Shown here: one piece after another, positions 14,909 through 51,331 of the stretch
How the letters are laid out: each line of letters begins with the position of its first letter
Numbering within the stretch: position 1 is the stretch's first letter
Source: Psilocybe cubensis
Taxonomy: Eukaryota
Assembly: GCA_017499595.2 (NCBI GenBank)
Contig: CM039000.1
Coordinates: forward strand, 4,030,001 to 4,094,000
Length of the DNA: 64,000 nucleotides
Reading direction: 5' to 3'
The notes under the pieces: generated by a model
What the model was told of the DNA's origin: nothing
Databases searched by the model: none
Seen by the model: only the letters and a program-made list of their open reading frames with translations
Program-made: the position numbers and the translations under genes

Positions 14909-15274
14909 ATGTCTCTTGCAACTTCATCCAACTCGAGCTCACATGCATTCAACTGTGACGATTATTTTGATTACGACGCCTACTATACGGCTCCACGTAC
15001 ACAAAGTGAATTGCAAAAATCTATTCTGCCGTTGGTCAATGACACAGAGTCTGCAATTCGCATGGCTCTGGGGGTTCCAGATAATGTCCCATTAGTGCAC
15101 GCTTGGCCAATGGGACATACTCCCTTTGGTTCAAGAGGACTTTCCAAATGGAAGGCCGTCGCGCTCGTCATTGTGTGCAGTCATGGACATAAAGCCACTG
15201 TGGCGCAAATAATCTCGTACATCGAGTGCTTGTATCCACGTTTACGGCCAGTAAAGCTGCAGGAAGGATGGAAG
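14909..15274 (+). CDS. Forkhead gene exon 1, separated from exon 2 by a transposon insertion
   Basis: MSLATSS...KATVAQIISYIECLYPRLRPVKLQEGWK, homologous to the 10324..10719 exon and nearly identical to 55968-56150. Ends directly at the transposon terminus. Confidence 0.85.
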
Positions 15275-15490
15275 GCATCAGTAAAAGTACACCCTCTAGC
15301 GCTTGCGGGACAATCACTTGTGCTAGGACTTTCTCCCGCTTTTTCAACTTCTGCTTTCACTTTTGCGTCTTTTGCCTTTGTTTTTGGAAGCTTACTGCTT
15401 CTGTTGCATCTTTTTATACACTTTCACAAGTTCATTCACTTTAGTTAATTTCTCGTTGATAAAGCATCAAAAAAGGTCTTTTGGGGGTAT

Positions 15491-16155
15491 CTAAAAAGCT
15501 ATCTCATGTGCATGATGATCTACATACTTGTTAACATAGAAAGAACGAAATGAATCAAGAGATTTTGAAAAATCAAACTTGGTGTCGAGAGGAATAAAAT
15601 CCTTCCCAGCATCCCCAATCAAGTGTGCACCTCGATAAATAGAATCAAGATGAACCACGCTCATCCGCCGTCGTTGGCCATATCGCTGGTCGCGTCTCTC
15701 TAGGTCCGGTTTGACTTTCCACATTCTAGTAGTTGGACATGGCTTGTCTCCAATGTGTGAAAACCATTGGACCAACGCACACGGATACAAAGTACCTGCA
15801 TGTTTAAAAGAGAAGAAAAGAAATACACGTGCCACATGTAAACCAGCGAATCCATCCTTGTCAGAGTCCGAATTACCAATGAACACGCAGTCACGCCGTG
15901 CAGGACCTTTGTGCCACGACGGGGTTGAGCGAATCATTTCATAATAAAGACCATTGGATCCAGAAAGATCACTGGGTGCGAAGTAGATGGCGCGAGCAGA
16001 AGTAAATAGTCGAAAAGTGCAACCGGCGAGACTGGGAAGGGAATCATTGGTTTGGATATGTAACCGAAGGTCGGCATTGGCAGCAACAAGTTGGTCGTAA
16101 AGGAAGCGTTGAGTGAGCTCCGCCAGGCGTGGTTGTCTGACATGGAATGCGAATG
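15491..16155 (-). CDS. C-terminal part of the outer Plavaka transposase
   Basis: FAFHVRQPRL...SARAIYFAPSDLSGSNGLYYEMIRSTPSW...RRDCVF...YPCALVQWF...FYVNKYVDHHAHEIAF is the typical Plavaka C-terminal region. It joins in frame to ...VRGVPLAIEA at ~34693-34722. Confidence 0.88.
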
Positions 16156-16374
16156 CATCAGCAATACCGGGGCCAAGTAGGTAATGATCCGTAGTGATAC
16201 GTAATTCTGTAGTGCCCATAGTAACGGTCCCATTTGGGTAACACACACTGATGTACCTGTAGCTTGGTACCAACGTGACATGGTACTCTGTAGTGATCTG
16301 TATTGTAACGCGAGTGCTGTGTAGCGGCGTGTAGCATGCTTACCATGGTCCATACCCCTCTGTATACAACTGAC

Positions 16375-16455
16375 ATACAAATTGTAGCATACTACCACAG
16401 ATTTGTAGCATGCTACCACAGATTTGTAGCATGCTACCACAGATTTGTAGCACAT
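16375..16455. repeat. Subterminal 21-bp tandem repeat (AGATTTGTAGCATGCTACCAC, ~3.5 copies)
   Basis: Visible directly. Its core TGTAGCAT recurs inverted (ATGCTACA) near the right end at ~34562 and ~34630. Confidence 0.85.
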
Positions 16456-16679
16456 CATAACACACTGCAAATAGGTACAAAGGCATATATAGTATCCACT
16501 TTCATTTGTATAGTGTTGTGTGGCTATTCCTGCAAGTGCCAATATCACACTGAAAACCGAACCATTTTTGACTAAAATGGGCAATTTTAAAAATAGATAA
16601 TCTATGTTTGGATCGGACCAAACATGTTTCTATTAGTAGATGCATAACTATTAATACGTGACGATCTAAATATGGTATC

Positions 16680-17129
16680 TGTCAGGGCAACACTATAATC
16701 AGTGTGACAAGGCCACCAACAAAGATTAAGCAAGAGAGAGAGAGAGAGAGCAGAGGGAGAGTAAGAGAGCAAAGAGAGAATAAGAGAGTGAGAGAGATTC
16801 AATGGTTCTAAGAGATCACACCAATGATAGTGGATATCCTAAGAGATTGAAGCTGAAGCTACAGCTACCTACAAGTCCAGTATTTATACTTTACAGCTAT
16901 TCTAGAATATTCCCTACATTACATCATAAAGGAAGGTTAAAGAATAAAAGTGACATCATATAGAAAAAGGATGAGTAAGACTAGGAATCATATAGAATTT
17001 ACTAGAAAGAAGTGGAGCAAGAAGGCTGTGATGAAAGAAATAAACTATCTAATCAGATAATTGATAAGATAATGAAAGGATAAGATAATTCTGTGAAGAT
17101 AAAGAGGGGAAACTGGAGAAACCCTGACA
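16680..17129. mobile_element. Solo LTR (450 bp) of an LTR retrotransposon
   Basis: Begins TGTCAGGG and ends CCCTGACA, flanked by the 5-bp duplication GTATC (16675-16679 and 17130-17134). AT/purine-rich interior with a GA microsatellite and no coding region. Confidence 0.88.
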
Positions 17130-17175
17130 GTATCTTCTAATCCACACCCGGCAGCTGCCCCGCTCATTCACCCAA

Positions 17176-19917
17176 CTACCCTTCTGGACCGTAATCTAGT
17201 TCCTCCTGTGGGATAGAATGGAGAGTCATCCTATAAGGGTTGGGGGGGTTCTTCGTAGGCCTCATAATAGCACTGATTATGGAGATCTAAATGATGCAAA
17301 GAAAGAAATGAATAAAAAAAGATACACACCATCCTTCCTCAGCCACTTCCCTACATAAGCAAGCCAAGCGAGGACCTTGGTTCAAGGTATCCTTCTCTGC
17401 CTCTGCTGCAACCAACATGCAGGCATCATACCTCAGGGAGTACTCCTCTCCCTTGAATTCAATACCCGAACACGGACCACCTCTTGCAGGGTCAATCCCA
17501 TCCCTCCACTCCTCAAGACAGTTGTGGATCTACAGCAAAATGCTTGTTAGCAAGGCAGTGCCAATAGCAGGAGAGAAATCAGAACTACACAACTGGCCAC
17601 AAGCGCAAATGCTTTGTGGGGAAGCGATGTCTTGAAGAAATCCGTCTTTGTCTCCAGACCTTTGATGGGGACTGCAACCCCTTTTGTAGGATGGTAGAAG
17701 AAGTCCAGACAGATCTTCTTCACAAAAGGATGTCCAAATGGGACATCGTGATACTGGAAACAAATCAATGAGTGGTAAGCCAGGTAAAATGGACGGCGAA
17801 CTCACTCGGGTTTTGGCAACACTCCGGTGGTATTTACCATTGAGTAGCCAATATGCTACCCTGTCCTTGATGTATTCGATCTCCCCCATCTGATTTTCAA
17901 ACATATTGGGGTTCGCGGCGATGACCTCCGACGGGACTTCGAGGCCATACGCATTTTTGACCAGGGGTCTGATCATCGTCTTCAGTCTTCCCCGGAAGGT
18001 TGACGCGTAGACAAATGCCTAATGAGAACAGACACGTTAGTACGATATCCTTAAAAGAACACGCTAAAAATATACCGTTACGGCGGTATTCCTGTCTAGG
18101 AGCGTTTTTTTCTCTGCAAAGTTATGTAAACCAATTAACTAAAATCACAGAAGACAGAACTTACTATCAGGCAACACTTTATCCGTGTTCATTCTTTCAA
18201 ACACGGTTACTGCCATCTTCACACATCCATCGGCGACTAATAAGTGATTTTCCCGAGTGGGAAAGGGGACCTCCTCTACTACATACAGGCACATCAGTTT
18301 GCGTGCAATTTTGAGCACATCTTTCCAGTAACCAGTAAAGGATGCAACTGAATGCTTGGATACTTCCCTAGCAGAAGAAGTACTGGACTTCTTATGAGCG
18401 ATGTATGCCTCACCAAGCACCTCATCATCGTCAGATGCTTCGTTGTTCTCCCTTGTCAAACCTTGGGATACAGCTCCTTGCGAAACAGCCACCTTGCGCA
18501 ATGCCTCAGGGCGAGGTGGCTTGTTCGCCCGATTACGACGACGGTGTTCTTGAAGAACATCCTCTACTTCCACAACCTATATCAATAATACATTAGCTAG
18601 ACATTAAATACAGCAGAGAAATGATTACATGGGGGGAAGGCTGGCGGAGCAATGCCCTTGCTCTCCTCTCCTCTTCATCATCGGAAACTTCATCAACCAC
18701 TGTCAAACATAGGTGGTAAGCAAACACGACATAAAGGTGGAGTTAAACCAACGCTGGGCAGCAGGCTCTTCATCATCTTGACCCGCGTTGTCGTAACCTT
18801 CATCACCGTCGACATATTGGAGAGCTTCTTCATCCCCAATATTCTCTTCATCAATTCCTTGCATGCATTCGTCCCCTGATGCTTCCTCAGATCGCCTTTC
18901 ACCGTCACTATCCCCCTCTTCCTCCTCCTCATCTTCCTCCTGCTCTATGCCTTCGTAATCTTGTTGCTCCTCCTCGTCTTGATGGCTGATGCTAGCCTCT
19001 TGGTGGGCGTTATAGGCTGCTGGATGCACTGGCTGTTGTACGGGGGCATGTTGTGTTACAGGATGCACTGGTTGTTGTACGGGGGCATTGTAGTATTGGA
19101 CAGAATTCTCTGCCGCAGGGGCAGCGTAACGCTGAACAGGATTTGCTGCGTGTTGTACAGGGCGCGGGACAGGATGTGCTGCATGTTGTACGGGGCGCGG
19201 GACAGGATGTGCTGGCTGTTGTACCGGAGCAGCGGGGCGCTGGATGGGGGCAGTGGGTCTTTGGACAGCATGATCAAGCTCTGAGTGCTCCTGATTTCTC
19301 TGAGCTGCACGTTGGATCTGGACAGGAGGGGGGGCACCCTGAGATTGTCGTGGGCTTGGTTGGACTTGTTGGACATCCCAAGGAGCAACTGAAGGCGTTG
19401 GCCTTGGTTGCATTTGAATAGGGGGACCTACATGCGACACAACGGTAACCTAGACGTGCTTGGAAGATAGCAAATTTAAGATTAGAACAGTAGACTCACC
19501 CCATTGCGAGGTTTCTTCAAGGGAGGCGCCATCTCATTTTCAGGCATGGCGCTAGTATCCACATTGGCGGCCCTTGACTTCCTCTTCCCAGCCTTCTCGA
19601 AGTCAATAAAAATGATGTTAGATGTTTTCTCCTACCGAGCATTTACTCCACCAAGACCACGGGTGCTTCGGATAGGACGGCCATTGTGGTCTTTTTAATA
19701 AGGAGTTCAGTGAATCTCAACAAAGAAAATGCTAGTACAGACCTGCTTCAGGAGCCTGAGGTGGCTCGTTTTCTGCCACGGAGCTCGGACCCTGTTCAAC
19801 CTCTTGTCCTAGATGGATAAAACATTAAGTATGCGGATGTAATGAGGATATATAGATGATACCTTCAACCGTGGCATTGACAACCGCCTTTTTCTTTTTG
19901 GATCCTTTAGGTGGCAT
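17176..19917 (-). CDS. DUF6532-like accessory protein of the inner element (multi-exon, possibly frameshifted near the 3' end)
   Basis: Starts MPPKGSKKKK, then a Q/P-repeat and acidic region, then STFRGRLK...VKNAYGL...PFGHPFVKKICLDFF...ALVASC|IHNCLEEWRDG...FKGEEY. The C-terminal pattern resembles DUF6532. Confidence 0.65.
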
Positions 19918-20711
19918 ATTGGGCTGGTTTGACGGTTGTAATGCAGAAATAGAGACAAGGGGTGGTGAATTATGTCAAGCTACGATCCGGAGGTATGCGA
20001 AATTAGCCTCTTTTCAAAATTTAAGGCGACGGACATCAGTCAAAAATATATCGTGCCATATAGAAATTACAGGTACTGAAACAGTACCCCTATCTACTAC
20101 AATATATCACATATACATTATAGTCAGATTCCATGTCCTACTTAGAGTTAAGTAAAGTTACATCTCAGAGGGGAAAAGACTGCACCTATCATGATCGCGG
20201 ATTATCCTGAGAGTGCATTAGAATAGGTATTCCCCGACTAATGAGGGATACCCGTAGACGGGCGATTTCGAGCTGGGTTTCAAACAGAAGATCTTCATTG
20301 GATTTATATGCTCGCATAATGTTGTCCATATAACAACGTAGCTCTGCCTGAACTTCTAGACACCTCTGTTCAGTGAGTTGAAATTGGTCAAGAGCCTTTT
20401 TAACGGCCTCTATGCCTTGATTCTAGAGGAAGGTGGATTAAAACATGAAAATAGACCTAAAACGAAGAACTCTGCCTCTTCGGGTATGCTAGGGAGGCGG
20501 CGACTTTGAGGTTGCGAAGCGTTGTTGCTATTGGAATGGTTCATGATAAAGATAGGCAACAATTTGGTGTGGTGGTGGTGGCTTAAGTTCAAGACAATCA
20601 ACACATTACGAACCATTAGCACTGTTGATTGCCGAAATACACTTAAATAGAATGACATAAAACCCGTATATGTCTACAAGTCCGTGTTCGAGATACAAGT
20701 AATGCTGCACC

Positions 20712-23071
20712 CTACATATTTACAACTTTGACACCACGGGACGGGGGGAAGATTTGAATCAAAGATGTTGTCGGAAAAGTTGGGAATGTATCACCGCGTT
20801 TCATACGAGTAACAGGATATTTATGTACAACGCAAATATCCTTGTCTATTGATCGTATCCTGAATATAATCCCCATTGAATCGCCCTCAAGCGGTGTAAC
20901 AAAGTCGTCCTTTTTTACAGGATGAATTGGAAACAACACTGATTTCGGTAATGTCAGTGTACGTCCCAGTAATGCTAGGTGGGCAGTATCGTCGGTAAGG
21001 CTGAGAAGTTCCATCGCCACTTGATGGTCGCCCTTGGATTTGTCTACGACTTTTAATCGTAATCCTTTCAGCTTATCGTATTTCGTATCTAGCCAGTGAG
21101 CGACGGTTGAGGGTAGTTCTGCAATTTCCACCGCCGAGTGTACAGGTATTGCTGAATACGGATTCCATGCAGGAGACAGAAAACTTGCTACTGTGGACGG
21201 CATTGGAGTTGCTCCACCAGAAGGCCCGGGGTCTTGAGCGGAATTTATATGTTCTCGGTTGCTTGAAACAATGTCAGTAAGCACCTGACAGTCAACGAAT
21301 CAAGTGAAACCACATACTGTATAATTAAATGTGATATTTTAATACGTTCCACCCTCTGGTTACGAGCTTCCAGCTCAACGTCTGCAAAGCCGTCGGGGGT
21401 AGTGCTTTTAACGATGCCATAGTACCCCTTGAATGTATTATTCCCGACAACGATGACACTCAAACCTATATAGACGTCGTTGTGGTCTCTTTCTCCAAGC
21501 TTTGACGAATGACGCTTTCGCGGGCGAAGAGTAGCATGGGCAGGGGGGACGTAGAATATGACTGTGTGGATGGGCACAATGACCTGAAAAATGTGTTGAA
21601 CACTACTGAGACAAAGAGAATGACAGTTCACCTACTTCGCGTTCGTGCTCTGGGGCGATAATACAAACAGATCTTCCATCAAAGTCTGACACCCATCCAT
21701 GGAGATCTTTGTGATCCCCTTCAACGACTTCAACACTATCGCCTATCTGGAAAGCTGCACGTAGATCGTGTAGTGCAACTGCTTGTGTTATACCTTGGGA
21801 GGGGATGTGCACTTCCACCTCAGCGTCAGAAACACTCTTGACCGTTCCAAAAAGACCTAAGTATTCTCCACCAATAATTTTGACTCAATCATATTGTTTC
21901 AGTCGAGTCATGGAGATGGCTTTCGAGGCTTGCGCTAAGGTCTCCGTCGTTACAAATGGACACTCGCGAAATTGCTCCAACTCGGACGATGTTGGGAGGA
22001 CATTGGAAAGATATTTGAGATCGATGGCGTCGAAATCCGTGATAATAAATCCATCCTGGAATATCCTGTCGAGGTGCGATTTCTTGATGTTGTCCGGAGG
22101 TCTGGGGATAAGAACAACACTTTTCCGACCCTGGAATGTGAACACAAGGCCGGTAGCATTTGCGTAGGTCGTCCAAGCCTTACGCTTTCCAGCAACCTTG
22201 ACCCACAATTGGTCTTCAGGGCGTGAGGGTGGGGGATGAGATAGGATCTCCATACATCTCTCCGAGGATAGCCTAACTAAATGTGTCGGATTAAGCTCTC
22301 TAACGAGGCAGGCTAACGTATGCGCATGTTGCATTGATGGCGCCTCGACGTAGATTCTCCCAGGAATTGAGGATTGAGCGAAGACAGACCGGGCAAGGAT
22401 GATGGGAAATGTAGGGTTCGTTGACATCTGCATAATTTTGAAAGCGACGGCCTCTTCGCGTCCAACCTATCACTCATAAGGTGATCAATAAATGCTGACT
22501 GAAGACTTATATTATTTTTGCGTACCTTGCAACCTATTTCATACATGATATCAGTCGCGGAAGGCATATAATTATTATCACCAAGTCCTCCTGGTTGGGG
22601 ATTGCCATATTTCTGTATAAGTTCTCGTGAACTAGATGGCTCTATATCATTGTCAGGACAAATTTTCATGCGTGAAGGCAGAAGCATGGGCAACAAATCG
22701 CTCCATTCATCAGCGTTATCTGTATTTTGCATGGCATGATATAGCCGAGAGTGTGCAACACGTTCCTCATCCTCAGAGTATTCATCGTTATCATTCACTG
22801 TATGTCAGAACCCATTAGCATCAGTACATATTGAGCAGAATATATGTAAATTATTGGAACATACGTAGTTGGCCCCCTTCATAATCAAGCTCTTCCGAAC
22901 TTTCATCATCATCGGAAACCGCTGCTTCAATGTCTATGAAGGGATTAATGTCCTGATTTTTTGAGATCATAATTAAATTTCCCTGAAGTCAGTGATTAGA
23001 TGGAGGGTTGGATTAGTACACACTGTGTGGTTGCCTAGGCTGTCAAGTCGTCTGCGTTTATAACTAGACAT
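20712..23071 (-). pseudogene. Spt5-like (NGN + multiple KOW) transcription-elongation-factor homologue with a premature stop
   Basis: NPFIDIEAAVSDDDE; NGN-like EIGCK|VGREE...SVFAQSSIPGRIYVEAP; KOW-like VKIIGGEYLGLFGTV, FQIGDSVEVVEGDHKDLHGWV and IGLSVIVVGNNTFKGYYGIVK...VELEA; a GGATP..PAW remnant. In-frame TGA at 21885-21887. Confidence 0.8.
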
Positions 23072-23643
23072 TGTGGGTCTTAAAGACTGTTAATCGATGT
23101 TCATCTCACTTAATTTATCATCTTAACTTGTGATAATTTATTTTTAGATCTGATGTAAGGGGGCGTTTTTTTAACCAACTCGTGACTTCAGGACGGGAAA
23201 CCTACCCTAAAGAATCGCTCCGGAAATAGCGTGTTTCCAACTTGATTGTTTTTCTTTCCGTTCATCATAGCGTAGTACCCCTCCCCATAGATTTAACATA
23301 CATTCTAATAAAATAGACATAGACAATACTCTAGACACTCTATAATAGTTTTCGTTCAGTTAAAATTCATCTAGTTGAAAATTTGAGACACCAGAAAAAA
23401 ACACACAAAAAAAAGTAAGTACCCAAAGAAATAGAATGCAGGGTGAGACGTTGAAGTTTTGTAGTGCAAGCCCAGAAGATTTCCCCCGTTGCCCGACTCC
23501 AAGCTGAAGAAATTCTGGCGTTTCCCTTCGAAACGCAGGTCGTTCGTCAGACTCTGGAAAACATGTTGCCAGAGTTGCACCCACTCCGCGTAGGTCTTAA
23601 TTGGATTGCCATTTATGGTACTAATATCAAGTTTCTGTAGAGG

Positions 23644-26600
23644 ATGGTGGATTTCCTCCGACGATATGAGGACTTCACCTTTTTGAATTACGATGTTTCA
23701 TCATCGAGCATGCGAGCGGCCATCAAGTATAGGCAAAGCTTGGCTGCCCTTCAGAACAGCATCGTAGAGACACCCTGCGTAACCTCGGCTACATGGGAGC
23801 AGGCGGGTAGCTTATTTGCAGCATACCGTCTACTCGATCTCGTAGCGTTGTGGCCAGCAGCCTTTGGACCATCATTGCCGGTGACCGTGCCCCTGAATGA
23901 AATACAGGCCAGCACAGGAACTAAGGAAATATTTTCACGGTTCAAGGTATGCGATCATGAAGTCACTCAATGTTAATTCTTAATTTTCAAACAATTATTG
24001 TAGCTTGTAGATGACTTGAAGGACTGGCCGGCAATGCTCTGCTCTGCCAGGAAGCGCATCCTCAGAGCCGACTCTAAGTCGCACAGAAACATCAACACCC
24101 CTTCTATCAGTGACACGCCGTCATCCGCTTTCACCCAGGGCGGGCCCTCGGAATCAACGCTATTACTCTGTCTGGCGCGTAACCACTTCAAGGGTGTTGT
24201 GGGGAAAATAATCGGGAATGTGTACTGCGCCTCGCTACACTACCAAATCTTGTCAGGAATGCGCGGTATGAAGGACGATGAACACATTCTACCAGACATT
24301 CCAACGGACATGGCTACTCTTGCAAATCTCTAGTAAGTTTTCTTTCCTCTATTCATTGATACAATCTGCTCAACATACCCTAGTGCAAGCGGCCATCCTG
24401 ATGCTGCGTTGTTCCTCTCAGAGGTCACGCCATCTCATTTAAAAATTCCTCTGCATGTCGCCCTTTTCATATCCCCATCCTTCTTTTTGTGAATAAATCT
24501 TGGTATTCTAAGAAATGTGACCGGGAGCAGCTGCTTAAATTAGGTGTATCCACATCCTCCCAGTTTAACTTGGATTAACGCACTCCTTTAGGCCTCAAAA
24601 GCGCTCGGTAATTGTCGCCCCCGTGTTCTGCGTGAAGTGGAGATGGAAATTTGGAAAATCATTGCAGCGCAAAATTGCGACATCCAGTCAGCCTTATATA
24701 AACTTGTTATCTCAGACTGCTGGATGGAATGCGAGCGGGTAATTGCACAAGATCCCGCGTTTCACTTTTTCATATGTGTGTTCTACGTACTGTAACAAAA
24801 TAACAATTTAAACTAATAATTGGCCAGCGTCAACGAGCAGCGCCGAGGTTACAGCAAATTCTAACCTAGCAAGGCGCAGCACTGAACCACACGGTAAGTT
24901 ATAAGCAAAGTCTGCGTCAATTACATGATTTAAATCCGTTTAAAACAGCTCAACTTCAGACCGTTTCCCATCATGGTGAAAAAACCACCTGTGAAGGGTC
25001 CGACGCAGACGCGGAGGGTGACGATGATCACGAAGTGGACACGACGGAAATGGTCAGCATGGGTCAACGGGAGAACGGGGACAATACGGTCCCTACCTCA
25101 AATATACAGCCTCCGGAAGACACGTCTTCAGTGGCTGGCAAGGATGTCAGCATGGGTCAACAGGAGAACGGGGACAATACGGTCCCTACCTCAGATATAC
25201 AGCCTCCGGAAGACACATCTTCGGTGGCTGGCAAGGATGTGCCCACGGACGAGCAACCTGGTTTGCCGCGGAGTGATGATATTGGATCTGGTCTACTTCA
25301 GACTGAGAATACTGGGCCCTCAACTGCAGGGGATTGTGAGATGAACGTCGATCCGGAGCAAGCTGATGTCGACCATCAAATGGAGGATGGTCCACATACC
25401 AATGGTCCAGAAAATTTGGGAGACGGCGGGGCTGGACAAGGAGCTGAAGGGTCTTCTGACGAGGCAAATCGTATGTCGGAAGTTCACGAGGGCGAAAAGC
25501 AGGGGCAAGACGGAGAACGACCCGACGAGGAGAACCGAATGTCAGAAGATGGTGAGGAGGAAAGGCCAGACGACAGTTCGTCGGACAATGAGACCGAGAA
25601 GCAGGGGCAAGGGGATGTTCCACCAGTCCAGGAGGACAGAATGTCGGTCGATGGAGAGGGGGTAGGCCCAGAGCAAAACAATGATTCCTCAGACATGGAG
25701 AGGAATACATTGGAAGACAGCCAAGGCGAAAAGGAGGGGGAGAACGCACCTCCTGCTCCTCTTATTTTGAGGATTCCTCCTGTTTCCCAGATAAACAGGA
25801 GCAAAAACACCACGGCTGACTCCTCTCAGAAAGGGAAAGGGAAGGGCCGGCAGGGCCTTTCCAAGCGGCCTCCCAAACGCAAGCCGACGCAGGCTACCGA
25901 CACATTTGATTCGGACGACGACCTGTGTATTGATGTCGATCTGTACGACAGCAACACCACCCTTGATGTCGTCAGCACTCCGGAGAAGGTGTATGGCACC
26001 AAAGTTTGGTCCACCTACAACGGTCGTGGCCAACTTAAAAGTTTCTGCGTTGTTGCCCATGTAAGTCATTCTCGATATTGATTTTTTCGTCATTTATTTA
26101 TTCTCCAAACAAGAGTCAAGCCGACGTGGATCGTGTTGAAAGGGTTCTGGAATTGGTCAAGAGTGACTACGTCGATGGAGTTCCATTGCACATAGCACAT
26201 CCCGAAGAATCATGTTTTGCGGTATTCGACCGCAGCACCACGAAATCCATGTATCTGATGGAGTCTTTCTCTGAAAGGAACGTCGTCCTTATGTCTCCTT
26301 CTCAAGAGGAGTCTATTTCAACTTGCTCCGACGAGTTCTACAGCCAGGTACGTCGCCATATGGGTGATATGACGAGCACCAGGTCAATCCAAGGTGTGTT
26401 TCCTCTTCGATGTTTTGATTTTTCTTTCTGCGTCTCATGCTAATGGCCGTAACAGATATGTCGACCATGTCGTCTAACCCCATCGAGAGGATTAAGCGTG
26501 GGTCCCTCTCTCAGGTCATGGAAGCAGCGAGGATGAAAGGCAAAAGAGGAAAGATCCTCAATGCCCTCGACATCCCTTTACCTCATGCAGGCGCTCACTC

Positions 26601-28124: not shown

Positions 28125-28595
28125 TATTGTACAACACATTGACACACATCTTGATTTACATACATGCCATGTTTTATTTAGTACTGAAAGGCGTGTATGT
28201 CCTGTAACATAATGACGATTGTTTTATTATCTGTAGTTGTGTGCTGCTCGTATCGCCAGACCAATACGCAAATTCTTGCTGGGATGAAAGCTTCTGGCTT
28301 TACTGTAACTGCTGTGCGTTTGAATTTATCATCAAGGTCAATGAAATCAACTAACTTACGTTTGTTGATGCTTCTTCCACCCACTTCAAAAAATGTGTTA
28401 GTGTCTTTGTTCTGGTGCGTATATACAGTAAAGCTCTTCCGAAGCCCTCCTTGGATTGTACTACGGATTGGTTGAATACTAACCCATGTGAAATTTGTTT
28501 GTATTAACGGAGACATAATCAGATAACATTTATAGACCCACTGCACGTTACTGAACATTACATTATCAGTTTTTTTTTCGTATCTTCGCTTTTGT

Positions 28596-31500: not shown

Positions 31501-31900
31501 CAATATTGTAGGCCATTCTGTCGTCGACATTCGTATTATTTTTCGCATTGTCGGAGAGACACCCAGTACTGTGTCTCCCGATATTACTAGAAGATTTCTC
31601 GCATACGTCCAACGTTTTGAGGTTTTAAATCAGCCACAGTCTCTAGGTTCTGCGATCCGTGGACCTTACCCAGAGCCAATAACCGGCATGTATAAATTAA
31701 AACGAAGTCAACGTACAGATAACACCATTATGGGTGGAATTTTACCATTGAATCAAATACGCTCCCTGGTTGATCTGGTCCCTCAGATGGGCGAGAAGGC
31801 AAGGCGAAGCCTTACTACACATAACAGTCATTCCACTAGCACCGAGTTCCGATTAAACAAATATTTTGACAAAGAACTCTATTTGGCCCTGTCATCATAA
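28596..31900 (+). CDS. Plavaka transposase of the inner element (multi-exon, apparently intact)
   Basis: N-terminal C2H2 finger (CPRC..F..HADVQNH), YYPFASKDEWEL, LFYRD, ISTDKT, DTPE, PEPLHHWHK, GFRHFKEGIS, QVTGREH, PKLE, DTTEHAHI and a terminal LNKYFDKELY. Confidence 0.92.
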
Positions 31901-32039
31901 CATATCCACCTCAGGAAACCCACAAAGTTTTCAATCCCTAATGCACATTGCCACTCAAATTATCACCCAACACGCCGGCCTCGTTGTACACAAAGACGAC
32001 TCGGATCAATATCAACAGCCGCTTCTCACCAGTCCCGCT

Positions 32040-32770
32040 TTCTCACACTGTATCATCGTCACCTACTGCATATCCCTCCATCCATCTCATCTCTGCAGAA
32101 TCAAGTCGTTCTCGCTCATCTTCCGCTCACCACCGCCCAAACTCCAAAGGATTCTTCCCAGAGTGCCTCTTCCTCTAAACAAAAATTCGCCTCCAGTCTT
32201 GTCGGTCCGTCCTGTCCTCAATTAGCGCCCATCTTGCCGGAGATACTCACTTTATTTTTTCAATTCCATTGCAGATTAAGCTGTCAGCACCTTATCTGAG
32301 ATCTGGCGCCCTCAAGACATTCCCTCCCTATTTCTACCCACTGAAGTCCTTTGAGGATTGAGGACATCTGGAAACATACTGCAGACAGCACTATGTTATC
32401 TCGAAGCCATTCGTCCCAAGGTTCCCAAAATTTGCAAGAGGAAAGCATTGGCCTCTCTCCCACAATCCATACCTGCCATGCCTCTGTATCATTACCTACT
32501 GAATACCCCTCCATCCGTCTCATTTCTGCAGAATCAAGTCGTTCTCACTCATCTATTCCACCCACCACTGCGCAAATTCCAAAGGATTCTTCCCAGAGCG
32601 CCTCTTCTTCTAAACAAAAATTTTTTTCAAGGCTTGCCGGTCCGTCCTGTCCTCAATTAGCGCCCACCTTGCCGGAGATACTCACTTTATTTTTTAAATT
32701 CCATTGCAGATCAAGCTGTCAGCACCTTGTCCGAGATCTGGCACCCTCAGGATATTCCTTCCGTGTTCCT
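32040..32770 (+). repeat. Partial tandem duplication of the 5' part of the cyclin gene
   Basis: ~32060-32330 matches ~32495-32770, including the intron GTCCGTCCTG...TTGCAG. ~32345-32460 matches ~32991-33110. Confidence 0.8.
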
Positions 32771-33584
32771 ACCCCCCGCCAAAGTAGGGGGTAGCTCTTT
32801 TCCTCCTACTCATTCCCGTCCAACTTCCAAGCAGATCTCTTCCGATTTGCAATCCATAGCGTCTCATACACATCCAATACATCCACACAACAGTCATCCC
32901 TCCGTATCCGGCCATAACCCTTCCCCGACCCTCTTGCTTGCCTCGGGCACCAAATCCGATCAGATATTACCCCTCAAGTCTTTTGTTTATAAAGTCCTTC
33001 GCCACTCAAGGACATCTAAAAACGTACTGCAGATAGCACTATGTTATCTAGAATCCATTCGTCCCAAGGTCCCACAGATTTTGCAAGAGGAAAACATCGG
33101 CATTTGCTCTTATGCTCAGCCCAAAAGCAGTATTCAGAAAGCTACCCCAGAAGAGCTGGCGATGGATGCTGAGCTTACTGCTCTTGAGAACTCCGGCAAG
33201 ATCAACATCATCAATAATTTCATTGACAATTCTATGCAAACATTCCGTGTTGCCGATTCTGGTTCACAAGATCTGGCTGAATCGTGCATCTATCCACAAG
33301 ACTCTCTGTCCAGCGTAGATGTGCAGGTCTCAACGGCTCCTCTTTCCACCACCCTTTCTTTGCCATCTCCCCTCCTGTGTCCCCGTAGAGCCTTTCTGGC
33401 ATCCCTCATCCTGGCCTCCAAATTTTCACAAGAAAAGTGTTATTCTAACCGTGCTTGGGCAAGGTTATCTGGTCTCCCACCTCGTGAAATTGGTCGCTGC
33501 GAACGTGCCCTCGCACAAGCCTTGCAATGGCGACTCTGGGTCGGCAAATGCGCCTTTGGTGAGAGTGCTGCAACTGCCACATAG
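32478..33584 (+). CDS. Pho85-type (Pcl/Clg1-like) cyclin carried by the inner element; start region looks damaged
   Basis: DQAVSTLSEIWHPQDIP...LKSFVYKVLRHSRTSKNVLQIALCYL...LLCPRRAFLASLILASKFSQEKCYSNRAWARLSGLPPREIGRCERAL..L.WRL is a cyclin box. The nearest ATG (~32478) is out of frame with exon 1. Confidence 0.8.
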
Positions 33585-33828
33585 TCTCAATAAGTTTCAA
33601 CTTTCACGACCGCGCCATGTAGTACGCATTCTCAATAATCACTCTTTTGCTTGCCACCACTACGCGCGCTCCTCCCGCATTCAGTTAGATAGGCATCTTC
33701 TTAGACTAGCCTAGAAAAATCTATAGAACTTTGTTTTACGTATACAGAACCCCTGAAGAATTTTTATACCCGCGAAGTTTGTTTTCAGCTTGAATTCCAA
33801 CTACGACAAAGTGAGCGTATCACACACC

Positions 33829-34379
33829 ATGCAAATCATCAGCTATGAGGAAATTTTACAAATCGAAGCAGAAGTATTGGCCCCTACTTTCCCAGATCTA
33901 ATACATCCTACAACTTTCCCAGAGGCCGCCTCACTTGCTTCTCAAAGACAGCAATACGACTTGGAAATGGCTCAGTTAGTTGAGCAGACCCAAAAAATGG
34001 TCCTTTTGACCGAGAACAGGCTGATACTGGCCATCCTGGCCCTTTTCAACGAAATTAACTGGACCACCCTGGACCCAAGGTTACTATCGTTGGCTAAAGC
34101 CAAGATTACCGAGGGTGACCAGTGGCTCAAAGCACGAGCCGTGAGTTTTCTGTTTCTTCAAGTTTCAAGTTGATACTCTTGCTTAAGATAACTAGGAGGA
34201 GACACTTCGGGATGCAGACTCAGGCAGCCCCGAGCACATATTGACCCAAGGGATGTCCATTATAGCCAACGGCCAGATTCATATTCGAACGGTAGAGGTG
34301 AGTCACAGTGATAACTACTTTGTTTCTACACTTTCTTAGTAATGGGCAGGATCTCATACGAGAATGTCAGGATCATTAA
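33829..34379 (+). CDS. Small helical hypothetical protein of the inner element
   Basis: ORF 33790..34173 followed by GTGAGT donors at 34141 and ~34298 and short downstream exons. Confidence 0.5.
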
Positions 34380-34692
34380 TAGGGTCAAGATACTACATTG
34401 TAAATAGACACTTAATTGCCTTTAAAAATGTACATTTTATTGCTTGATATGATTGAAGAGCTTTACTGAGACCAATCACATTGGACATCAAACTCTCCTA
34501 AGTCTGGAATCGTACATAGAGATAGCTAGGAAAATCCAAAGCTCGCAGTAGTAATGTTGGAATGCTACAGAGCTCAACGGAGCATCCCGCCGATGACACA
34601 TGACGCTATACTGTCTACAGCCCACTTTGATGCTACATCCGGTTGGCAGGACAATACGTTGAGTTACCTCCGAAAATCCGGATTTACTGATG

Positions 34693-37423
34693 TGCTTCAA
34701 TTGCCAGTGGAACACCACGTACTAAGGAAAAATTAATTGAATATATGCGCTAAAAAGGTTTAGGATAACATACCATGAGATTTTGCAAGTGTAATCTCAG
34801 ATTGCGATTCTGGCTCAAAAACCTCGCCACACTCTTCAGTTGACGCTCTCCTTGGTGGCTCGGGAGGTGTATCTTTCAATATAGTTACGGGAATGTGGGG
34901 CCCCGAGATACCATTCAGCATATTGTGTTCGGTAAAAAAGACCCTTGCCGCCAAAAGTTTCTCGACACGTTGATTTGTTACAAGCATTTGACCAAGTGCC
35001 TTATAGCGACTGGACCGCCGATAAGGTTTTTTGACAGCTTTGATGTGTTTGTTCTCTGTGATTGACGAGCAAAGACCGTTTGGTGCTCCAAAAAGTCGGA
35101 TTAACATAGGGTAATGAGCAAGGGAATGCTGCCGTGGGAGTGAAAATCCTTCAGGTCGCACATTCAGGTCTCGAAAAATTTCACGATGGCAATGAAAGCG
35201 TGATAAAGCGACCTCTATTTGATCCAGTGTATCGTCGTCGATGGCATTACGTCGCACCAGGTAACAGAAGTCAAGAAACGCGGCTACAGCCTGAACCATT
35301 TGGTCTGGAACATGGCCTGCAATAGCGGGCAAATACACCTGATAGATTCGGCTGAGATATCATAACTTTGGTTGGGGTTTTAATCACAAACCTTCATTAA
35401 ACCCTTTGAATCATCGCCAGTCCACTGTTTGAATCCGCGTCCTTGATGAAAGTGTTGAAGACCAGGAAAAGAAGGCGCAAGTACAATGCTACCAGGAAAA
35501 TTGATGTCAGCATTGAATCAGTGGCTCTAGGACCAGCCGGAAATATATACCGTCGATCAATATCAGCTAAAATCTTCTTTGCAATTGGCGGATCATGATG
35601 TTGATTGATGTACTGTGTGACCCAGTCCACCAAATGGTCTTTGAAGGTTCCTTTGATAATTTGATGAAGTAGATCGGGGGCGAGAAGTTCGTGTATATCA
35701 GCTCGGGGGAATGATGAAGTAAATGGCTAACAACAGGTCGTGGAGTTAGCAACACAATTTCCGAAACAGTATGCTGAAAATTTTACTCACAAATAAGTCG
35801 CCAACTATGCCATAATCATCCCACAATTCTATCAATGTACATCCGTCTACTAGGGCTTCTGTATGCACCTGTGATCGCCGAGGACTAGGTGCATCGAGGT
35901 TATCAGGATGAGATGTACATCTGCAATTTAAGATCATTAGCCACAAGCGGTAATTGTAATTTTGAATTAAAACCTGCCTTGGACACCATCCTTGAACAAT
36001 GCATGCAAGCAATGCTTGCTCAGGATAATCTGCAATGTAAGGGCCAATTCCATATATAATACGACGGTAATGGCCATCTCCACACATGGTTACACGTGGC
36101 GTAGACATGTAAGGCCGAAGCGATGATAAAATGTGTTCGAGAGACGTATGGAACAGTTGCCGGCGAAACTTGCGGAAGTCGGCTCTATCGCTGTATTCTT
36201 GTGATGCTTTAAAAGAGACCATGTAAGCCAACAAGTAAAATTAGTAACCGAGAGGAGCTTACTTTTGGGAATGGCCAGAAATCCGACCAGCGAGACTGCA
36301 TTTTTGTGAGCTCGTCGCATCTTGTTATGGATATTTCCTAATGACATGTAGAGAGGATAAAAATCATTTTGTCCCGTAGCTACAGACACTGTGGTCTTGT
36401 CGCTTCCGATGATGACCGGGCAGAACATGGATCCATGACATTTGATGTCTTGGGCGATTTTGTTCTGTACAAAAAACAATGATAAGAAAATAAGCACAAC
36501 AAAGAATAACAAGTCACGCACTGCCTGCAGCCATGCCCATTGTCCCGACATAAGATTCCGGTATCTGCGTTTACCATTCCAATAATATCGCTTTGGGGCA
36601 TAATCAATGTTTCCCACATAAGTTGGGTTGCCAATTTGTTGCTCTAGAACGTCAAGTGGATTGCGAAACCAAACTTCATATTTTTGTGTCATCCACTCGG
36701 GAATTGGACCATCTTTTGGTAGCTTGCCGTTGTAGGTTACAGAAAATGAGGTCCATGGAATGTTGCCTTGTTTGATGCTATCAATACAAGCATACATATC
36801 AGAGTGATTTGCAAACGGTGGGTCTTGATCAGGATAATTAGCACCTAAAATTTGTGACAGGCGATCTATCCTGCCTGCTGACATCTCCTCCTCGACAAAA
36901 AGAAATTCAGCCATTTCAAATTCTGTCCGAGTTGCAAAGGGTGTAAAGTCCTCCTTGTTGTGAGGCGCAGCAGGTTGTGGCTTTGTATTTGGGGGAAGAT
37001 AGTGACCCGCAGAATCACACGGTCTTCCTAGACATACATTAGCTATAATTTGTGAAAAAAAGAGCCTCGAAAACACCAACCATCAATTGTCGGGTGGGTA
37101 TCTATATGTGAAGTAGGCACTGGATTTGGACCACTCGGATTTGATTTTGGCGATCCAGATGGTGTTTGGCGAGGTGAGCGACGAGGCGAAAAGTTGTTAG
37201 ACCACGGCTGTGGACTTGGAGAGGGAGAACGAGAGGATGGTAATTGCGGCAAGAAAGACTGTGCATGCAGAAGTGCAGACTGCACGTCCAGAGCAGCAGG
37301 AGTAACATGTTTTCTGTCATAATGTTGTTGTATGCCCCATGATGTTGTCGAGGTTTTGAGACATCCACTGTATGAGCAATGAAACGTAGCTGCCCGGAAT
37401 TTCTTGCGAGTTCTTGAAGACAT
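34693..37423 (-). CDS. Plavaka transposase of the outer element, N-terminal and catalytic part, interrupted at 34692
   Basis: C2H2-like start (CSYSGC...QQHYDRKH), PFATRTEFEMAE, VWFRNP, GSDKTTVSVATGQ, CGDGHYRR..YGIGPYIADYPEQ, PDLLHQIIKG.FKDHL, SLPRQHSL.HY and APNGLCSSITENKHIKAVK. Confidence 0.92.
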
Positions 37424-37535
37424 GGAGGTTTTGAGTCAGTCGTGCAAAAAACTCAGCATCAGAATCAGTGTTACAGCGACACGGCGCTGCATGTCACACT
37501 GCATTTGATTTCTTACCGTCAAAGTACAACATACT

Positions 37536-38303
37536 ATGCCTCCATACAACGACTGGAATACTCTCGACGGATATGTATCCAATTCCGAGGAGGACAGGTC
37601 AGAAAATGGAAGTTTGGACTGGCATTACAACTACCAACAAGAACATGAAGAGGACAATTACTATATGCCTTTCAGACCCATGATCCCTCCTCTTTCGCCT
37701 CATCCCAAAATGAAAGCCAGCATGGATGCCATAGAAGTTTCGGATTACAAGGACGGAATTGCAACCATGGCGGAACAGGCATTTAAGGGGGAGTTTGAGC
37801 GTGTTGTACAGCTATCAGCAAATCCGAAGGTAAGTATATGAAGTCACACAGCCAGAGCGTTGAAAACTCACTATATGGCGCTTCAGTATAGCAAAAAAAA
37901 TCCACCCGTATTCAAAAGGCAGCATCCTGATGAGCCTGGAAGCTATGCACAGCTGCGCGCGGGCATGCAAGCCACCCAAATTGAGCAGACTATTTGTCTG
38001 TATCGCGCTATCCTGAATCAAAAACGAAAACGCCTCATTAAATATACAAAAAGTCCTCGCCTTTTTGAGTGCGTTATGCTCAATCACAAGGCGGGCAATG
38101 GCTCAAAACTCAGGATAGCATTGTCACCTATTCGGGCGGGAGTTCGAAGGGCGCATCTAGCTCAGGAAATTCGCATTTTTGAAATGATGATATTGCGAAG
38201 GAAGGCTTACTTATTGGGTCTGCTAAGCATTTCTCTAGGCGGCGGAGAAGCTAATGACCCCAAAATACGACGAGTCAACGGTCCTTGTTTAAATATTTTT
38301 TAA
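37536..38303 (+). CDS. Small hypothetical protein of the outer element, divergent from the transposase
   Basis: ORFs 37536..37841 and 37860..38303 are joinable by an intron (GTAAGT at ~37830). No domain recognised. Confidence 0.5.
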
Positions 38304-38426
38304 AAACTAGATTGCAATGTAACTATCATTAGTTTACAGCCAAAAGAATTACTAGATTGCTTGCCATGTCGGTGAACTTGAGCAAAAACATTGTTGCGAG
38401 TGCCATGTTTGAATGTTCAGCAACGA

Positions 38427-38503
38427 CCTGAAAAAAAAACAACGACAAATGCTACAACAAACCCATCTGAAAAAAAAACAACGACAAATGCTACAACAAA
38501 CCA
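38427..38503. repeat. ~39-bp tandem duplication (CTGAAAAAAAAAACAACGACAAATGCTACAACAAACC x2)
   Basis: Visible directly, just upstream of the ATG at 38573. Confidence 0.8.
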
Positions 38504-38572
38504 AACATGGTCTCTAAAATTTGAATCACTCACATTGCAAATGACATCCTCATATCTCAAAGCACCTTTCAG

Positions 38573-40908
38573 ATGCCGCCAAAAAAGGATGCAGTGGTTC
38601 TTTCAGGGCCTACTCGACGTTCATCTAGCAGAGTTGATGACACACCGGCGATAACTTTAGATGAGCCATCCCATTCTACTGCTGAGCAAGACACTGACCG
38701 TCGATTGACCCTTCGGGCTGTACGCAATTCGAACCCACGAATTGCAGATGCTCCACGACCGAAGCGAACATCAGAAGAAGTAGCAAAAGAAAAGAAAAAC
38801 CAACAAACCAAACAAAAAAGGGTTGTCTTGCTTCGCAAAGCTTTGATTCAAAAGGCAGCAGCTCTCGAGGACCAACTTCTTCAAGAGGAAGCCAACCTAA
38901 AGGATGACACATTCAACAATATGCAGGTAATACTCACATCCGATTTAAGAGTAACTCACTGTCTGAAAGCTCCTTTAAGTCTTTACCCGCTTCGGATTTA
39001 CTAGGTATGTCATAATGTTCAAGCTATACCGAGACTGATTTAAAATTAACAAGATCACGGTGGAAATGATGGAGTACCTTCAATGTCAGGGGACATATCG
39101 TCGAGTGGTGGTACTGAAGATGAGTATGTGGACAAGGATAATCAGGATGTTGAGTCTGAAGACTCAGACATCAATGACGGTGGAGGTTTGGACGATGATG
39201 CCGAGCTTTCTCAGGCAAAGTCCAAGGGAAGCCGAAAGGAAAAACGGGGAAAGCTTAGAGAGCAAGTTACGGCTTATCGATCATCTACTAATAAAAATCA
39301 AGAACCATCAGTGGGAAACAAAAGAAAAGGACGAGCATCACAGTCCAGGTGCGTACTTGGTCTCATCATTGTATGCATAAAAACTGAGAATATGTTCTCT
39401 AGAAAACCTGCAAAAATGAAGAAGTCTAACGTCTGTGGCATACGTGACGATTGGAATGAAGAAACGTACCAAGAGCACTTTGATCTCCTGCCCGGTGCAA
39501 ATCAAAACCTTCCTCCTAGCTCTAATGCTAGTGGAACCAGCGGAACAAGTGACATGGAAGTTAATGACGACGACGACGACGTAGAGGCAATAGATGGGAT
39601 TAGTGATGATGAAAGGGAAGTAGTAGAAAGGCGTGGAATTTTGGTTGCCAACACATTGGCAAATCCCCGTGGAAAGGTAGCGTATTACCTAATGCAGTTC
39701 TCTACGTTGACTGACTACTTTCTTTATCTCATTAGTCCTCTGTACCTTTAGCCAACCCTGCATATACTGGTCGCTCCTTGGCCAAAGTTGAGGCTACAAC
39801 ATCTGTACCAACATATATTCCATCAGCTTTGTTGGATGGAAGGCTCAAACGGAAGCAAGAAATCCGCGCCAAAGTTGACCTTCCATCTGAACTGAGGTTG
39901 TCCTACGATGAGAAATTTTCACCTATGCTTCGTGAACTAATTGGAATTATCAGTCCTTGGGAACGTCCATCAGAACAGCAGATATTGGATGTTTGGCATA
40001 AAGTATTTCCGGATGTACCGCTAGAGGGTTGGCTAAAGACTGTGGTAACCAAATTGGTGTGTCACTTATTATTTTGCATGGACCTTACTGACTACCGCAT
40101 AGGTAGAAAATAATATATATAACTGGCGTACAAAACTTGCTCAAACAGCATCAACATGCTTTGAGAGGTCAATCATTCCGGCAATGGAAGATTGGTCAAA
40201 ATCTGGAATTGCAGAATGGTGCAAATGGGCACTCTCGGGTGACTACAAGTGTCGTCCGTTCTACTACCTAAGCTATGAGGAGGGGGATGATCAGATTAAT
40301 GCGACAGTAGGTGTTTTCTGAGTTCTAGAATTGATAATTGTTTGCATTTTAACCAGAATCTTTTTTCTAATCAACCAGGGGATATTTCAGCACCCGCTCA
40401 TTTTATCAACACTTGCATACCATTACTCCAGCATATCCGCGATCCACTCTAGTGCCCGACGTGATGACAAACCAGTAGGCGCACTGATAATGGCCATTCA
40501 GGCGGTACGTGATATATAGCACTATTGCATACCATCACTGATATCAACTGCATCTGTTAGTCCCATCGTGCTATATCTCATTGGCTTACGGGCGAATATC
40601 AGAAGATCCAACGGCCATTGGGTGACTTCTCAAAAGACAACTGGGGGGATAATCTTACTCGGGATCCAAAGTACTACCCCACGCTATCACCCGGTTTGGT
40701 TCAAGAAAGCAAAGCTACGTCTAATCTACTGCGTGTAGTCAATAAGCTTACAGATAAGCGATGGGAAAAAATCATTCAGGGTGCTATGCAGGCTACACGT
40801 AGGCACAAGAGCATTACAATTCAGACGATTGCACCAGCAGCTCCTGATGCAGTCGAGGAACCTCTCTCCGATTTTTCTATTCTCGATAACAATAACGATA
40901 GTGATTAG
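38573..40908 (+). CDS. Accessory protein of the outer element (basic/acidic N-terminus, DUF6532-like C-terminus)
   Basis: Multi-exon: MPPKKD...; SPWERP..ILDVWHKVFP; GIFQHPLILSTLAYH...KPVGALIMAIQA|SHRAISHWLTGEY...FSKDNWGD. Layout parallels 17176..19917. Confidence 0.65.
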
Positions 40909-41260
40909 ATTACTAACTAGTTTAAGCAGCTCAAATTCATACTTTTGAAAAAAAAATTGTCGTCATGAAAGATCTTAAAAGCTTTCCTTAAGATGTATAG
41001 CTTACTCATAGTGTGGTATCTTTTGGGCACACTTTTGCCACTTTTCGGTCTTTCGAAAGATCAAACCACTTGTGCATGGAAATGGGGTCTGGCTTGCAGC
41101 AAGCCCAAATACTTTCGCACTTTCGGCACTTTCATCACTTTAGAAAGCAATGAAAGTGCCCGAAAGTGGGGGTGCAGTTTTACTGATGGGTACGTGTTCT
41201 TCGTGTAAACACGGACTTGCACACCTTTAATTATGCATACTCATTCCCCTTTTTCTATAG

Positions 41261-41410
41261 GAATCTATTAGAAATACGCTTACACAGTACCAAATGTTTT
41301 ATAAGAGTGGGTACGCGAGAGGTGGAGGCCTTCGTGGGCATTATTGGAAAGTAGATGCAACGAAGGTTGGTCTATGCAGACGGAGAGCAAGGAAACCTTC
41401 TACTAAATAA
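41261..41410 (+). CDS. Forkhead gene exon 2, the continuation of 14909-15274
   Basis: Intron GTACGT (41190)...TTCTATAG (41260), then ESIRNTLTQYQMFYK...RGHYWKVD...TAA. Matches the uninterrupted paralog at 56151-56346. Confidence 0.88.
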   Translation, partial: ESIRNTLTQYQMFYKSGYARGGGLRGHYWKVDATKVGLCRRRARKPSTK

Positions 41411-41613
41411 TGGCTCTATTTATGTGACTTTCCCCCCCTTTTCCCCCTGTACCGTCGATACCACTTAGACTAGAAAGTAGACAGTTCGTTTAACAACATT
41501 AACGGTCAGGGTGGTATGTTACACTGTGCCTTACGAGGTCGTACACCGAGCGCTTACAGTGTGTAAGGTGGCCTTGTACGGCGGACCCGCTAAACCGGCG
41601 TTCAGATTACTAA

Positions 41614-41747
41614 ATATGGTAGATCTTTACACTGTATCCCATTGCGCACATCAGCGGGCCCGTGCTATATCATCCTTTTACTGAGTCAAATATGGTAGCT
41701 CCTTACACTGTACCTCATTGTGCACACCAGCGGGCCCGTGCTATATT
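41614..41747. repeat. Left subterminal ~57-bp direct repeat of the KDZ element
   Basis: AAATATGGTAG.TC.TTACACTGTA...CAGCGGGCCCGTGCTATAT occurs twice and contains the terminal motif TTACACTGT. Confidence 0.85.
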
Positions 41748-42093
41748 GCCCATTTAATAATTCAGCGGTTACAGTAGCTACACAACGTGCATACCGCGGA
41801 TGGCCTTGCTTGGTAATCAAATTGCCTCGCCAAAGCTCGACCAGTTTGATCTCCCTCGCCAATGATTTAAATTGGCGAGCTGATATATAAATCAACTCAT
41901 TGGAAAGAAGCCATTTCACGTCAATACGGAACAATATTATACATCATTGTACTTTAAGATGATTAGTGTACATCTGGGATACATAATACATAACTGTTTG
42001 TCAATATGTTAATACGGTGAAAGGACAGCAGCTCCGAGGGTCACGTACAATATTCTTCGAATTAATGCTCAAAATGTTCGATTAATGCTACAC

Positions 42094-44274: not shown

Positions 44275-44336
44275 GTTGGATGTTGCAAAGAGACAGCTAC
44301 GAATCATAGACATCACCCGGACAGTCTATTTTTACT

Positions 44337-48104: not shown

Positions 48105-48238
48105 GATTGTTACATATCGCAAACCAGTTTATTCATCTGTCCGTATTTGTAGTCGATGTACATAGTTGAGCCGATTGACTTGAGCCGATCGACTCACTAT
48201 CTTTCCACCGTAATTTTTCTCCTCTAACTCCAACTATT

Positions 48239-51227: not shown

Positions 51228-51331
51228 AAAAGAGTCTTAGAGATCTTGTAGAACATCTTTTAGAACAGGCTTGTTATGATATAGGGTAAAACAAATAAAT
51301 TGAGCAATAATAATGAATGCACACGTATCGA

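Follow-up and report, generated by a model that had tools for sequence, protein, structure and literature searches.

We analyzed a 64,000-nucleotide stretch of Psilocybe cubensis contig CM039000.1 (positions 4,030,001 to 4,094,000 of assembly GCA_017499595.2; hereafter the window, with all positions counted from its first letter), in which a forkhead gene, gene A, is split by a large nested transposon insertion. Exon 1 of gene A (14909..15274, forward strand) comprises 122 codons that encode helices 1 and 2 and end in W-K, and exon 2 (41261..41410, forward strand; 49 codons and a stop) has an open reading frame and encodes the recognition helix and wing. Each exon corresponds to one half of the Pfam Forkhead model PF00250, the two halves being complementary: exon 1 matches model positions 11–52 (16.9 bits, E = 0.007) and exon 2 positions 50–82 (16.4 bits, E = 0.0098), each alone falling under the cut-off of 27 bits; the full-length relatives P0001, P0005, and P0007 exceed that cut-off. 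The intron (41190..41260, forward strand; 71 nt, GT..AG) occupies a phase-0 position that is conserved in the family. An earlier note on this DNA had started the reading frame at 14765, where the codon is TTG; translation probably begins at the ATG at 14909.

The left junction reads TGGAAG-G-CATCAG, with exon 1 ending at 15274 and the insert starting at 15276, and the right junction reads CTGATG-GG-TACGTG, with the insert ending at 41188. The insert (15276–41188; 25,913 bp) lies between the G and the T of the splice donor and is flanked by a target-site duplication (TSD) GG, present on the left at 15274..15275 as the last base of exon 1 and the first base of the intron, and on the right at 41189..41190, where a G/GTACGT donor is rebuilt at the element end. 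In a DNA search of the organism's own genome, similarity to other genomic copies ends precisely at 15276 and at 41188, and so these boundaries are not a product of chance. The junction letters of the earlier note are correct, and its placement of an insertion at the splice donor of a forkhead gene is confirmed by the junctions, the terminal inverted repeats (TIRs), and the GG duplication; the layout of an empty site that it read in a neighboring paralog, TGGAAG/GTATGT...TAG/GAATCT, is likewise present there (intron 56151-56217).

Two PlavakaB elements and a solo long terminal repeat

Three elements are nested in the insert. The outermost is a PlavakaB element of 7.37 kb; its transposase gene holds a second PlavakaB element, 18.5 kb long and carrying cargo, and this in turn contains a solo long terminal repeat (LTR) of the Ty3 type. 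The TIRs of the outer element, at 15276..15294 (forward strand) and 41170..41188 (reverse strand), are identical at 17 of 19 positions, and both the outer and the inner element have the ends CATCAG..CTGATG. The left arm of the outer element (15276..16155) ends in TG and its right arm (34693..41188) begins with TG, these being the left and right TSDs of the inner element; without the inner part, the outer element measures 7,374 bp. Its transposase is encoded on the reverse strand, with upstream exons at 34763..37435 (six frames inspected, all open) and the 3' part of the last coding exon at 15491..16153, which is severed by the inner element and is 91% and 90% identical to the uninterrupted copies on contigs C2 and C11, respectively. 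PF18759 is matched above cut-off in three frames of this transposase (best E = 3e-58). A second gene on the forward strand (38525..40908), made up of several open frames and present in the C2 and C11 copies as well, gave no Pfam match in the frames scanned. The C2 (7,358 bp, TSD GA) and C11 (6,827 bp, TSD CA) relatives match window positions 15276-16156 plus 34693-41188 without interruption, and a further relative is found on contig C6 (1,178 bp, TSD TT), such that 2-bp TSDs flank all three other outer-family members for which both ends were recovered. The outer element combines CATCA..TGATG termini, the 2-bp TSD GG, and PF18759; for both elements, the assignment to PlavakaB is by termini, TSD, and PF18759.

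At its right end, the outer element is 98–99% identical to the C2 copy (C2:4179384-4186741) over the final 1.1 kb (40093-41188), and the rest is 77–89% identical, a mosaic that suggests recent conversion or recombination between subfamilies. The C2 and C11 copies are themselves 74–85% identical in most windows. An old age of the outer insertion, as might be read from its 77–87% identity to the C2 copy in 300-bp windows, was considered and rejected because C2 and C11 represent different subfamilies and a 99.4%-identical copy is found in sequencing run X7 (see below).

The inner PlavakaB element (16156..34692; 18,537 bp here, TSD TG) harbors a Plavaka transposase gene on the forward strand (28536..31900) with matches to PF18759 (E = 6e-64) and DUF6830, the product of which is only ≈28–34% identical to the outer transposase. 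Its cargo comprises an SPT5-like gene (20715..22804, reverse strand) with NGN and KOW matches, an exon matching DUF6532 (17533..18018, reverse strand; E = 7e-5, below cut-off), and a weak cyclin match (32661..33584, forward strand; E = 0.003, also below cut-off). No Pfam match to a TET/JBP dioxygenase was found in the frames scanned, which were unspliced, and Pfam did not confirm a JmjC-like cargo in these frames either; PE-type TET proteins are described as too diverged for Pfam in PMC12730594.

The left arm of the inner element recurs at 13 other genomic loci at 99–100% identity. Among the 14 inner loci retrieved, 11 have both ends and three the left end only, and all 11 two-ended copies carry 2-bp TSDs in unrelated flanks; these copies and the one in the window share the CATCA..TGATG termini and the 2-bp TSD. 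The window copy differs by 0.3% from the copy on contig C12. Two other fully retrieved inner copies contain a central palindrome with 124-bp arms (L074:6733-6907), one arm of which is missing from the window copy through a deletion at 23149..23150 (176 bp relative to the C12 copy and 170 bp relative to the C6 copy). Further insertions interrupt or partly invert the inner copies at C5:3238080-3308092, C10:2776334-2800536, and C11:504642-529317. The solo LTR (16680..17129; 450 bp, TG..CA, 5-bp TSD GTATC) shares 99% identity with LTRs from a Ty3 chromodomain retrotransposon, which has TG..CA LTRs, a 5-bp TSD, gag, PR-RT-RH-IN, and a chromodomain; the inner copy on contig C7 sits within an LTR of this same family.

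The earlier note had described the insert as a composite transposon. As a single mobile unit this description is not supported, since the outer-plus-inner arrangement is absent from the other loci examined and the two elements are separate at every one of them, and we therefore prefer serial nesting.

Gene A, its paralogs, and a subtelomeric forkhead family

Two paralogs of gene A lie in the window. Paralog B (55967..56346, forward strand) retains the exon/intron layout of the empty site and is a pseudogene with a TGA in exon 1, the result of a TGG-to-TGA change at the site equivalent to gene A 15104-06; the stop allele is found in four of the four sequencing runs compared. With paralog B dead, this haplotype lacks an intact copy of the A/B pair. 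A comparison of A and B over 79 codons, with the stop codon left out, gives 13 synonymous and six nonsynonymous differences, corresponding to a ratio of nonsynonymous to synonymous differences per site (pN/pS) of 0.13 (binomial p = 2e-5), a value that reflects the shared history of A and B and not gene A today. Furthermore, the first 18 residues of exon 2 are identical in the two paralogs despite five synonymous changes. A pN/pS of 0.13 indicates that the protein was constrained, and by these codon comparisons the gene A protein was under purifying selection, its odd recognition helix included. Identity between A and B is 92% over 188 bp (15091-15278 versus 55967-56154) and 80% over the intron and exon 2, and the sequences upstream are barely alignable; this pattern suggests that old tandem copies were partly homogenized by gene conversion. 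Paralog C (10103..11066, reverse strand) is a more distantly related member of this forkhead family. It shares the intron (10306-10362), its forkhead domain is open, and its product is one of six named P. cubensis homologs. Two database models of paralog C, P0004 and P0014, read through the conserved intron and thereby lose the recognition helix; splicing of the 57-nt intron yields STIRHNLS.

A search of the genome with exon 1 identified 19 loci including gene A (L116–L134, on contigs C2, C3, C6, C9, C10, C14, and C18), which form a single clade in the tree (support 92/92). All 15 loci on chromosome-size contigs lie ≤146 kb from a contig end (≈2.5e-8 if the seven clusters are independent), and terminal TTTAGGG arrays are present at six of the seven cluster-bearing contig ends, the seventh having 17 hexamers in its first 3 kb. 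An intron of 56–67 nt was recovered at the same position in 13 of the 18 other family loci, and thus the element struck the conserved donor of the family. A search with the family profile recovered 45 solved forkhead sequences (best E = 3.5e-12). In the recognition helix, gene A has E-x-x-R-N-x-x-T in place of the canonical N-x-x-R-H-x-x-S; among the 14 family helices read, the Asn is found in none and the His in two, and at least seven variants occur (TIRHNLS, TFRGYLS, TLRNYLS, TLCGYLS, TLRGYLT, TLRGHLS, and SIRNTLT).

A full HMMER scan returned nine matches at E ≤ 0.001, six of them named Psilocybe cubensis proteins and three of them short matches in long proteins; the ESM Atlas returned generic forkhead clusters at 0.85–0.88, which serve as leads only. 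Word-limited profile and domain searches gave seven matches among 8000 scored candidates and three among 169, all from P. cubensis and none from other fungi, which is weak evidence that the family is specific to the P. cubensis lineage. Divergent forkhead loci outside the 19-locus clade are found at C5:3038k, C5:3063k, C12:727k, and C4:1259k, and the three that were aligned (both C5 loci and the C12 locus) share the segment that precedes helix 1 in the clade. No literature on the gene A locus, or on forkhead genes forming a subtelomeric family in Psilocybe, was found in a search outside of which most subscription papers fall. As a tentative suggestion, and one that we hold as possible rather than probable, these ≈19 small forkhead proteins may constitute an undescribed, lineage-specific subtelomeric family of P. 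cubensis with helices that diverged under constraint, acting either as fast-turnover regulators with new DNA specificities or as decoys that do not bind DNA. If this is true, the polymorphic nested insertion would offer a ready natural null for the most divergent member of the family, the only close paralog of which is dead.

Polymorphism of the insertion and the fate of gene A

We compared four of the 15 listed sequencing runs (X7, X9, X12, and X13) over window positions 13500-17400. In X9 and in X7, one contig follows the letters of gene A to exactly 15275, departs from the window sequence there, and re-enters at sequence identified as paralog B by variants at 15106, 15112, and 15121; the depth of this contig is at the single-copy level in both runs (26.5 versus 25.7 in X9 and 14 versus 12.8 in X7). 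Depth over the outer left arm is near zero in X9 (0 in four of six bins and ≈1.3 in two). X7 contains a 99.4%-identical outer left arm on one contig with other flanks and no inner element. The insertion is polymorphic, with X9 and X7 lacking the outer left arm at the gene A site, and the outer subfamily moved recently, as the near-identical arm with other flanks in X7 reveals. The earlier note had proposed a search for an empty allele in other samples; its view that the insertion is recent is upheld by the absence from this site in both runs and by the undecayed exons. The word shares of the runs (0.61–0.96) were rejected as a measure of genotype, since X7 has a share of 0.82 yet is empty at the gene A site. 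Eight reads in X12 and four in X13 join 15486 to 16154 on opposite strands, a junction that would correspond to an inversion or to a second insertion in the outer arm near the end of the inner element.

We interpret the locus as a recent, polymorphic insertional knockout of gene A by serial nesting, with a probability of roughly 0.8. A 7.37-kb autonomous cut-and-paste PlavakaB element entered GG at the exon 1/intron boundary and duplicated it; exon 1 now runs into GCATCA instead of GTACGT, with the intact donor 26 kb away. An 18.3-kb PlavakaB element of another, currently amplifying family would then have entered the transposase gene of the outer element in its final coding exon, with the TSD TG, and broken that gene. 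The solo LTR would be what recombination left of a Ty3 retrotransposon that had inserted into the inner element, from which one arm of the palindrome was also deleted. Transcripts from the gene A promoter would be unable to splice to exon 2 and would acquire at most 57 foreign codons before a stop, the resulting loss of the recognition helix making this a null allele. With paralog B already dead, this nucleus would be left without a working member of the A/B pair. Masking in the dikaryon or a small effect on the fungus is probable, as gene A is one of 19 family copies, and a strong phenotype appears unlikely in view of the 17 more distant paralogous loci (several of which are broken) and the second nucleus in dikaryons.

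Several points weigh against this interpretation. For X9 and X7, the evidence covers the points of departure at 15275 and of re-entry at paralog B and not the letters in between, so that the empty-site reading GAAGGTACGTG was not obtained directly; the genotype at 15275 comes from two of the four runs, X9 and X7, with 393 loose ends outside the rows examined; the arm copy in X7 rests on one contig at a depth of 4.84; and the constraint estimated from A and B belongs to their common past. The protein searches turned up no record for gene A, a word-based search with exon 1 having given one candidate and scored none. As its helix lacks the canonical Asn and His, gene A may also have no role whatever in DNA-binding regulation. 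Of the earlier claim that a transcription factor was knocked out or altered, what stands is that the insertion breaks a gene under past purifying selection, whereas the role of gene A as a regulator is uncertain.

Alternatives to a knockout by serial nesting concern either the consequence of the insertion or its origin. The allele could be altered rather than lost, through a half-forkhead protein with a transposon-encoded membrane anchor or through element transcripts that express exon 2 via the rebuilt donor. The predicted read-through frame (15275..15448, forward strand) adds 57 codons with a hydrophobic stretch before a stop, giving a product of 179 aa from the ATG at 14909, 57 residues of which are element-encoded; the 19-residue window at residues 152-170 has a mean hydropathy of 2.3, and a single-sequence fold contains a confident helix at 147-178, all of which favor an altered product. 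The rebuilt donor at 41190 (TGG/GTACGT) does so as well, with a score of 8.3 versus 10.7 for paralog B in a hand-set matrix based on the donor consensus. However, the tail comes from the T-rich, noncoding element end, the model has a mean predicted local distance difference test score (pLDDT) of 49 and outside the helix shows pLDDT <50 and no fold, and the insertion is too young for any selection signal. The element frame that leads into the rebuilt donor meets a stop two codons upstream of it, in the frame of exon 2, and therefore no in-frame fusion of the element to exon 2 can arise. The hydrophobic tail of the earlier note thus exists as an open frame to 15448, but the altered factor it envisaged is only a predicted read-through into the element end, and we consider an altered allele very improbable. 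Splicing from AAG/GC across 26 kb was rejected, given family introns of 56–71 nt and a poor match at +3 to +6. A more serious contender, although still unlikely, is that gene A was already nonfunctional or silent, the insertion being neutral debris in a decaying subtelomeric cluster. Neighboring paralog B is a pseudogene, five of 18 other loci lack a clean spliced product, the family clade has its longest branch at A/B (1.4 changes per column), and gene A has no database record; set against this are the intact exons and intron signals of gene A, the pN/pS of 0.13, the 18 identical exon 2 residues, and the lack of an A-specific exon 1 variant among the rows listed for the four runs.

As to origin, the 25.9-kb insert could have moved as one unit, the inner element having entered the outer one elsewhere and the whole then having reached the forkhead gene by mobilization in trans. 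The outer element is intact at both ends, the two elements share their terminal letters, an active transposase family is present, cut-and-paste transposition is established to leave no donor copy, and PlavakaB consensus sequences of ≈24 kb exist (Table S1 of PMC12730594). Yet no second locus examined holds the outer and inner elements together, the outer copies on C2 and C11 have no interruption, each of the 14 inner-end loci retrieved has other flanks, and X7 likewise has its near-identical outer arm in uninterrupted form, which makes movement as one unit improbable in our view. An assembly artefact, in which exon 1 and exon 2 come from different loci joined via repeats, would find a classic place for a misjoin here, as the interval holds an element with 13 near-identical copies. 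It is nonetheless contradicted by TSDs that match at every level of the nest (GG, TG, and GTATC), by outer arms that rejoin into a colinear transposase, and by the X9 and X7 contigs that connect gene A exon 1 to the paralog B region, and we give it almost no weight.

The interval between genes A and B also contains a KDZ transposon of ≈14 kb (≈41497..55486, ends approximate) that is flanked by the 8-bp direct repeat TTTAACAA and is characterized by PF18758, CxC2, and subterminal inverted repeats; its closest relatives in the genome are only 66–69% identical over long matches. The repeated 31-mers of this element would probably stop an unbranched contig, and X9 and X7 thus probably lack the KDZ element too. 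Flanking host genes are found at 243-2720, 4865-8555, 57674-58441, and 61330-63195, and by their motifs we take these to include a tandem membrane-protein pair, a long UBA-type gene, a zinc-protease-like gene, and a serine-protease (S53-like) gene.

Comparison with known systems

Both elements are new members of PlavakaB, and nesting, solo-LTR formation, and splice-site knockout are processes already known. The mechanism is ordinary, and the value of the locus lies in a clean case, with three layers that each have matching target duplications and with two PlavakaB families that are moving in present-day P. cubensis and reaching genes. For a lineage in which the ends were not defined until 2025, it supplies further TSD evidence; it would also provide a null allele, one that is segregating, of a regulator-like gene that is constrained and apparently unannotated. 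The 19-locus forkhead family with its variable recognition helix may matter more than the insertion itself.

Nested transposon insertions and the formation of solo LTRs by recombination are general phenomena, and the likeness here is in elements within elements and in the one LTR left by recombination; what differs from usual nesting is that one PlavakaB element lies within the transposase gene of another, which in turn lies within a host splice donor. Transposon insertions at splice sites are known to null or alter genes, as in plant En/Spm and Ac/Ds alleles, with which this locus shares a target duplication that rebuilds a splice signal at one element end. In contrast to those alleles, splicing-out of the element is unlikely here, judging from the short fungal introns. 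Solo-LTR deletion has been described in Marasmius oreades (PMC9674265). PlavakaB is defined by CATCA..TGATG termini and a 2–3-bp TSD (Kojima 2025, PMC12730594), and the members of this CMCT clade share with the elements described here the CATCA..TGATG ends, the 2-bp TSD, PF18759, a mushroom host, and lengths of up to ≈24 kb with cargo. The inner family differs from the PlavakaB elements described there in that it carries SPT5-like, DUF6532, and cyclin-like cargo, with no TET/JBP match in the frames scanned. The word "Psilocybe" gave zero matches in the supplement text of that paper, in which long cells are incomplete and the figures fall outside the search.

Finally, the forkhead family can be placed beside the FOX winged-helix factors (FOXL2, FOXC2, and FOXN1), of which it keeps the W, L, and R residues and the wing motif G-x-Y-W. 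In solved FOX structures, Asn and His of the recognition helix contact bases, and the DNA-touching residues are called strictly conserved across FOX proteins in PMC7062188. In gene A, WKESIRNTLT stands where FOXL2 has WQNSIRHNLS, such that both the Asn and the His are replaced, and the family further differs from FOX proteins in its subtelomeric location and in an additional segment, conserved among its members, that precedes helix 1.

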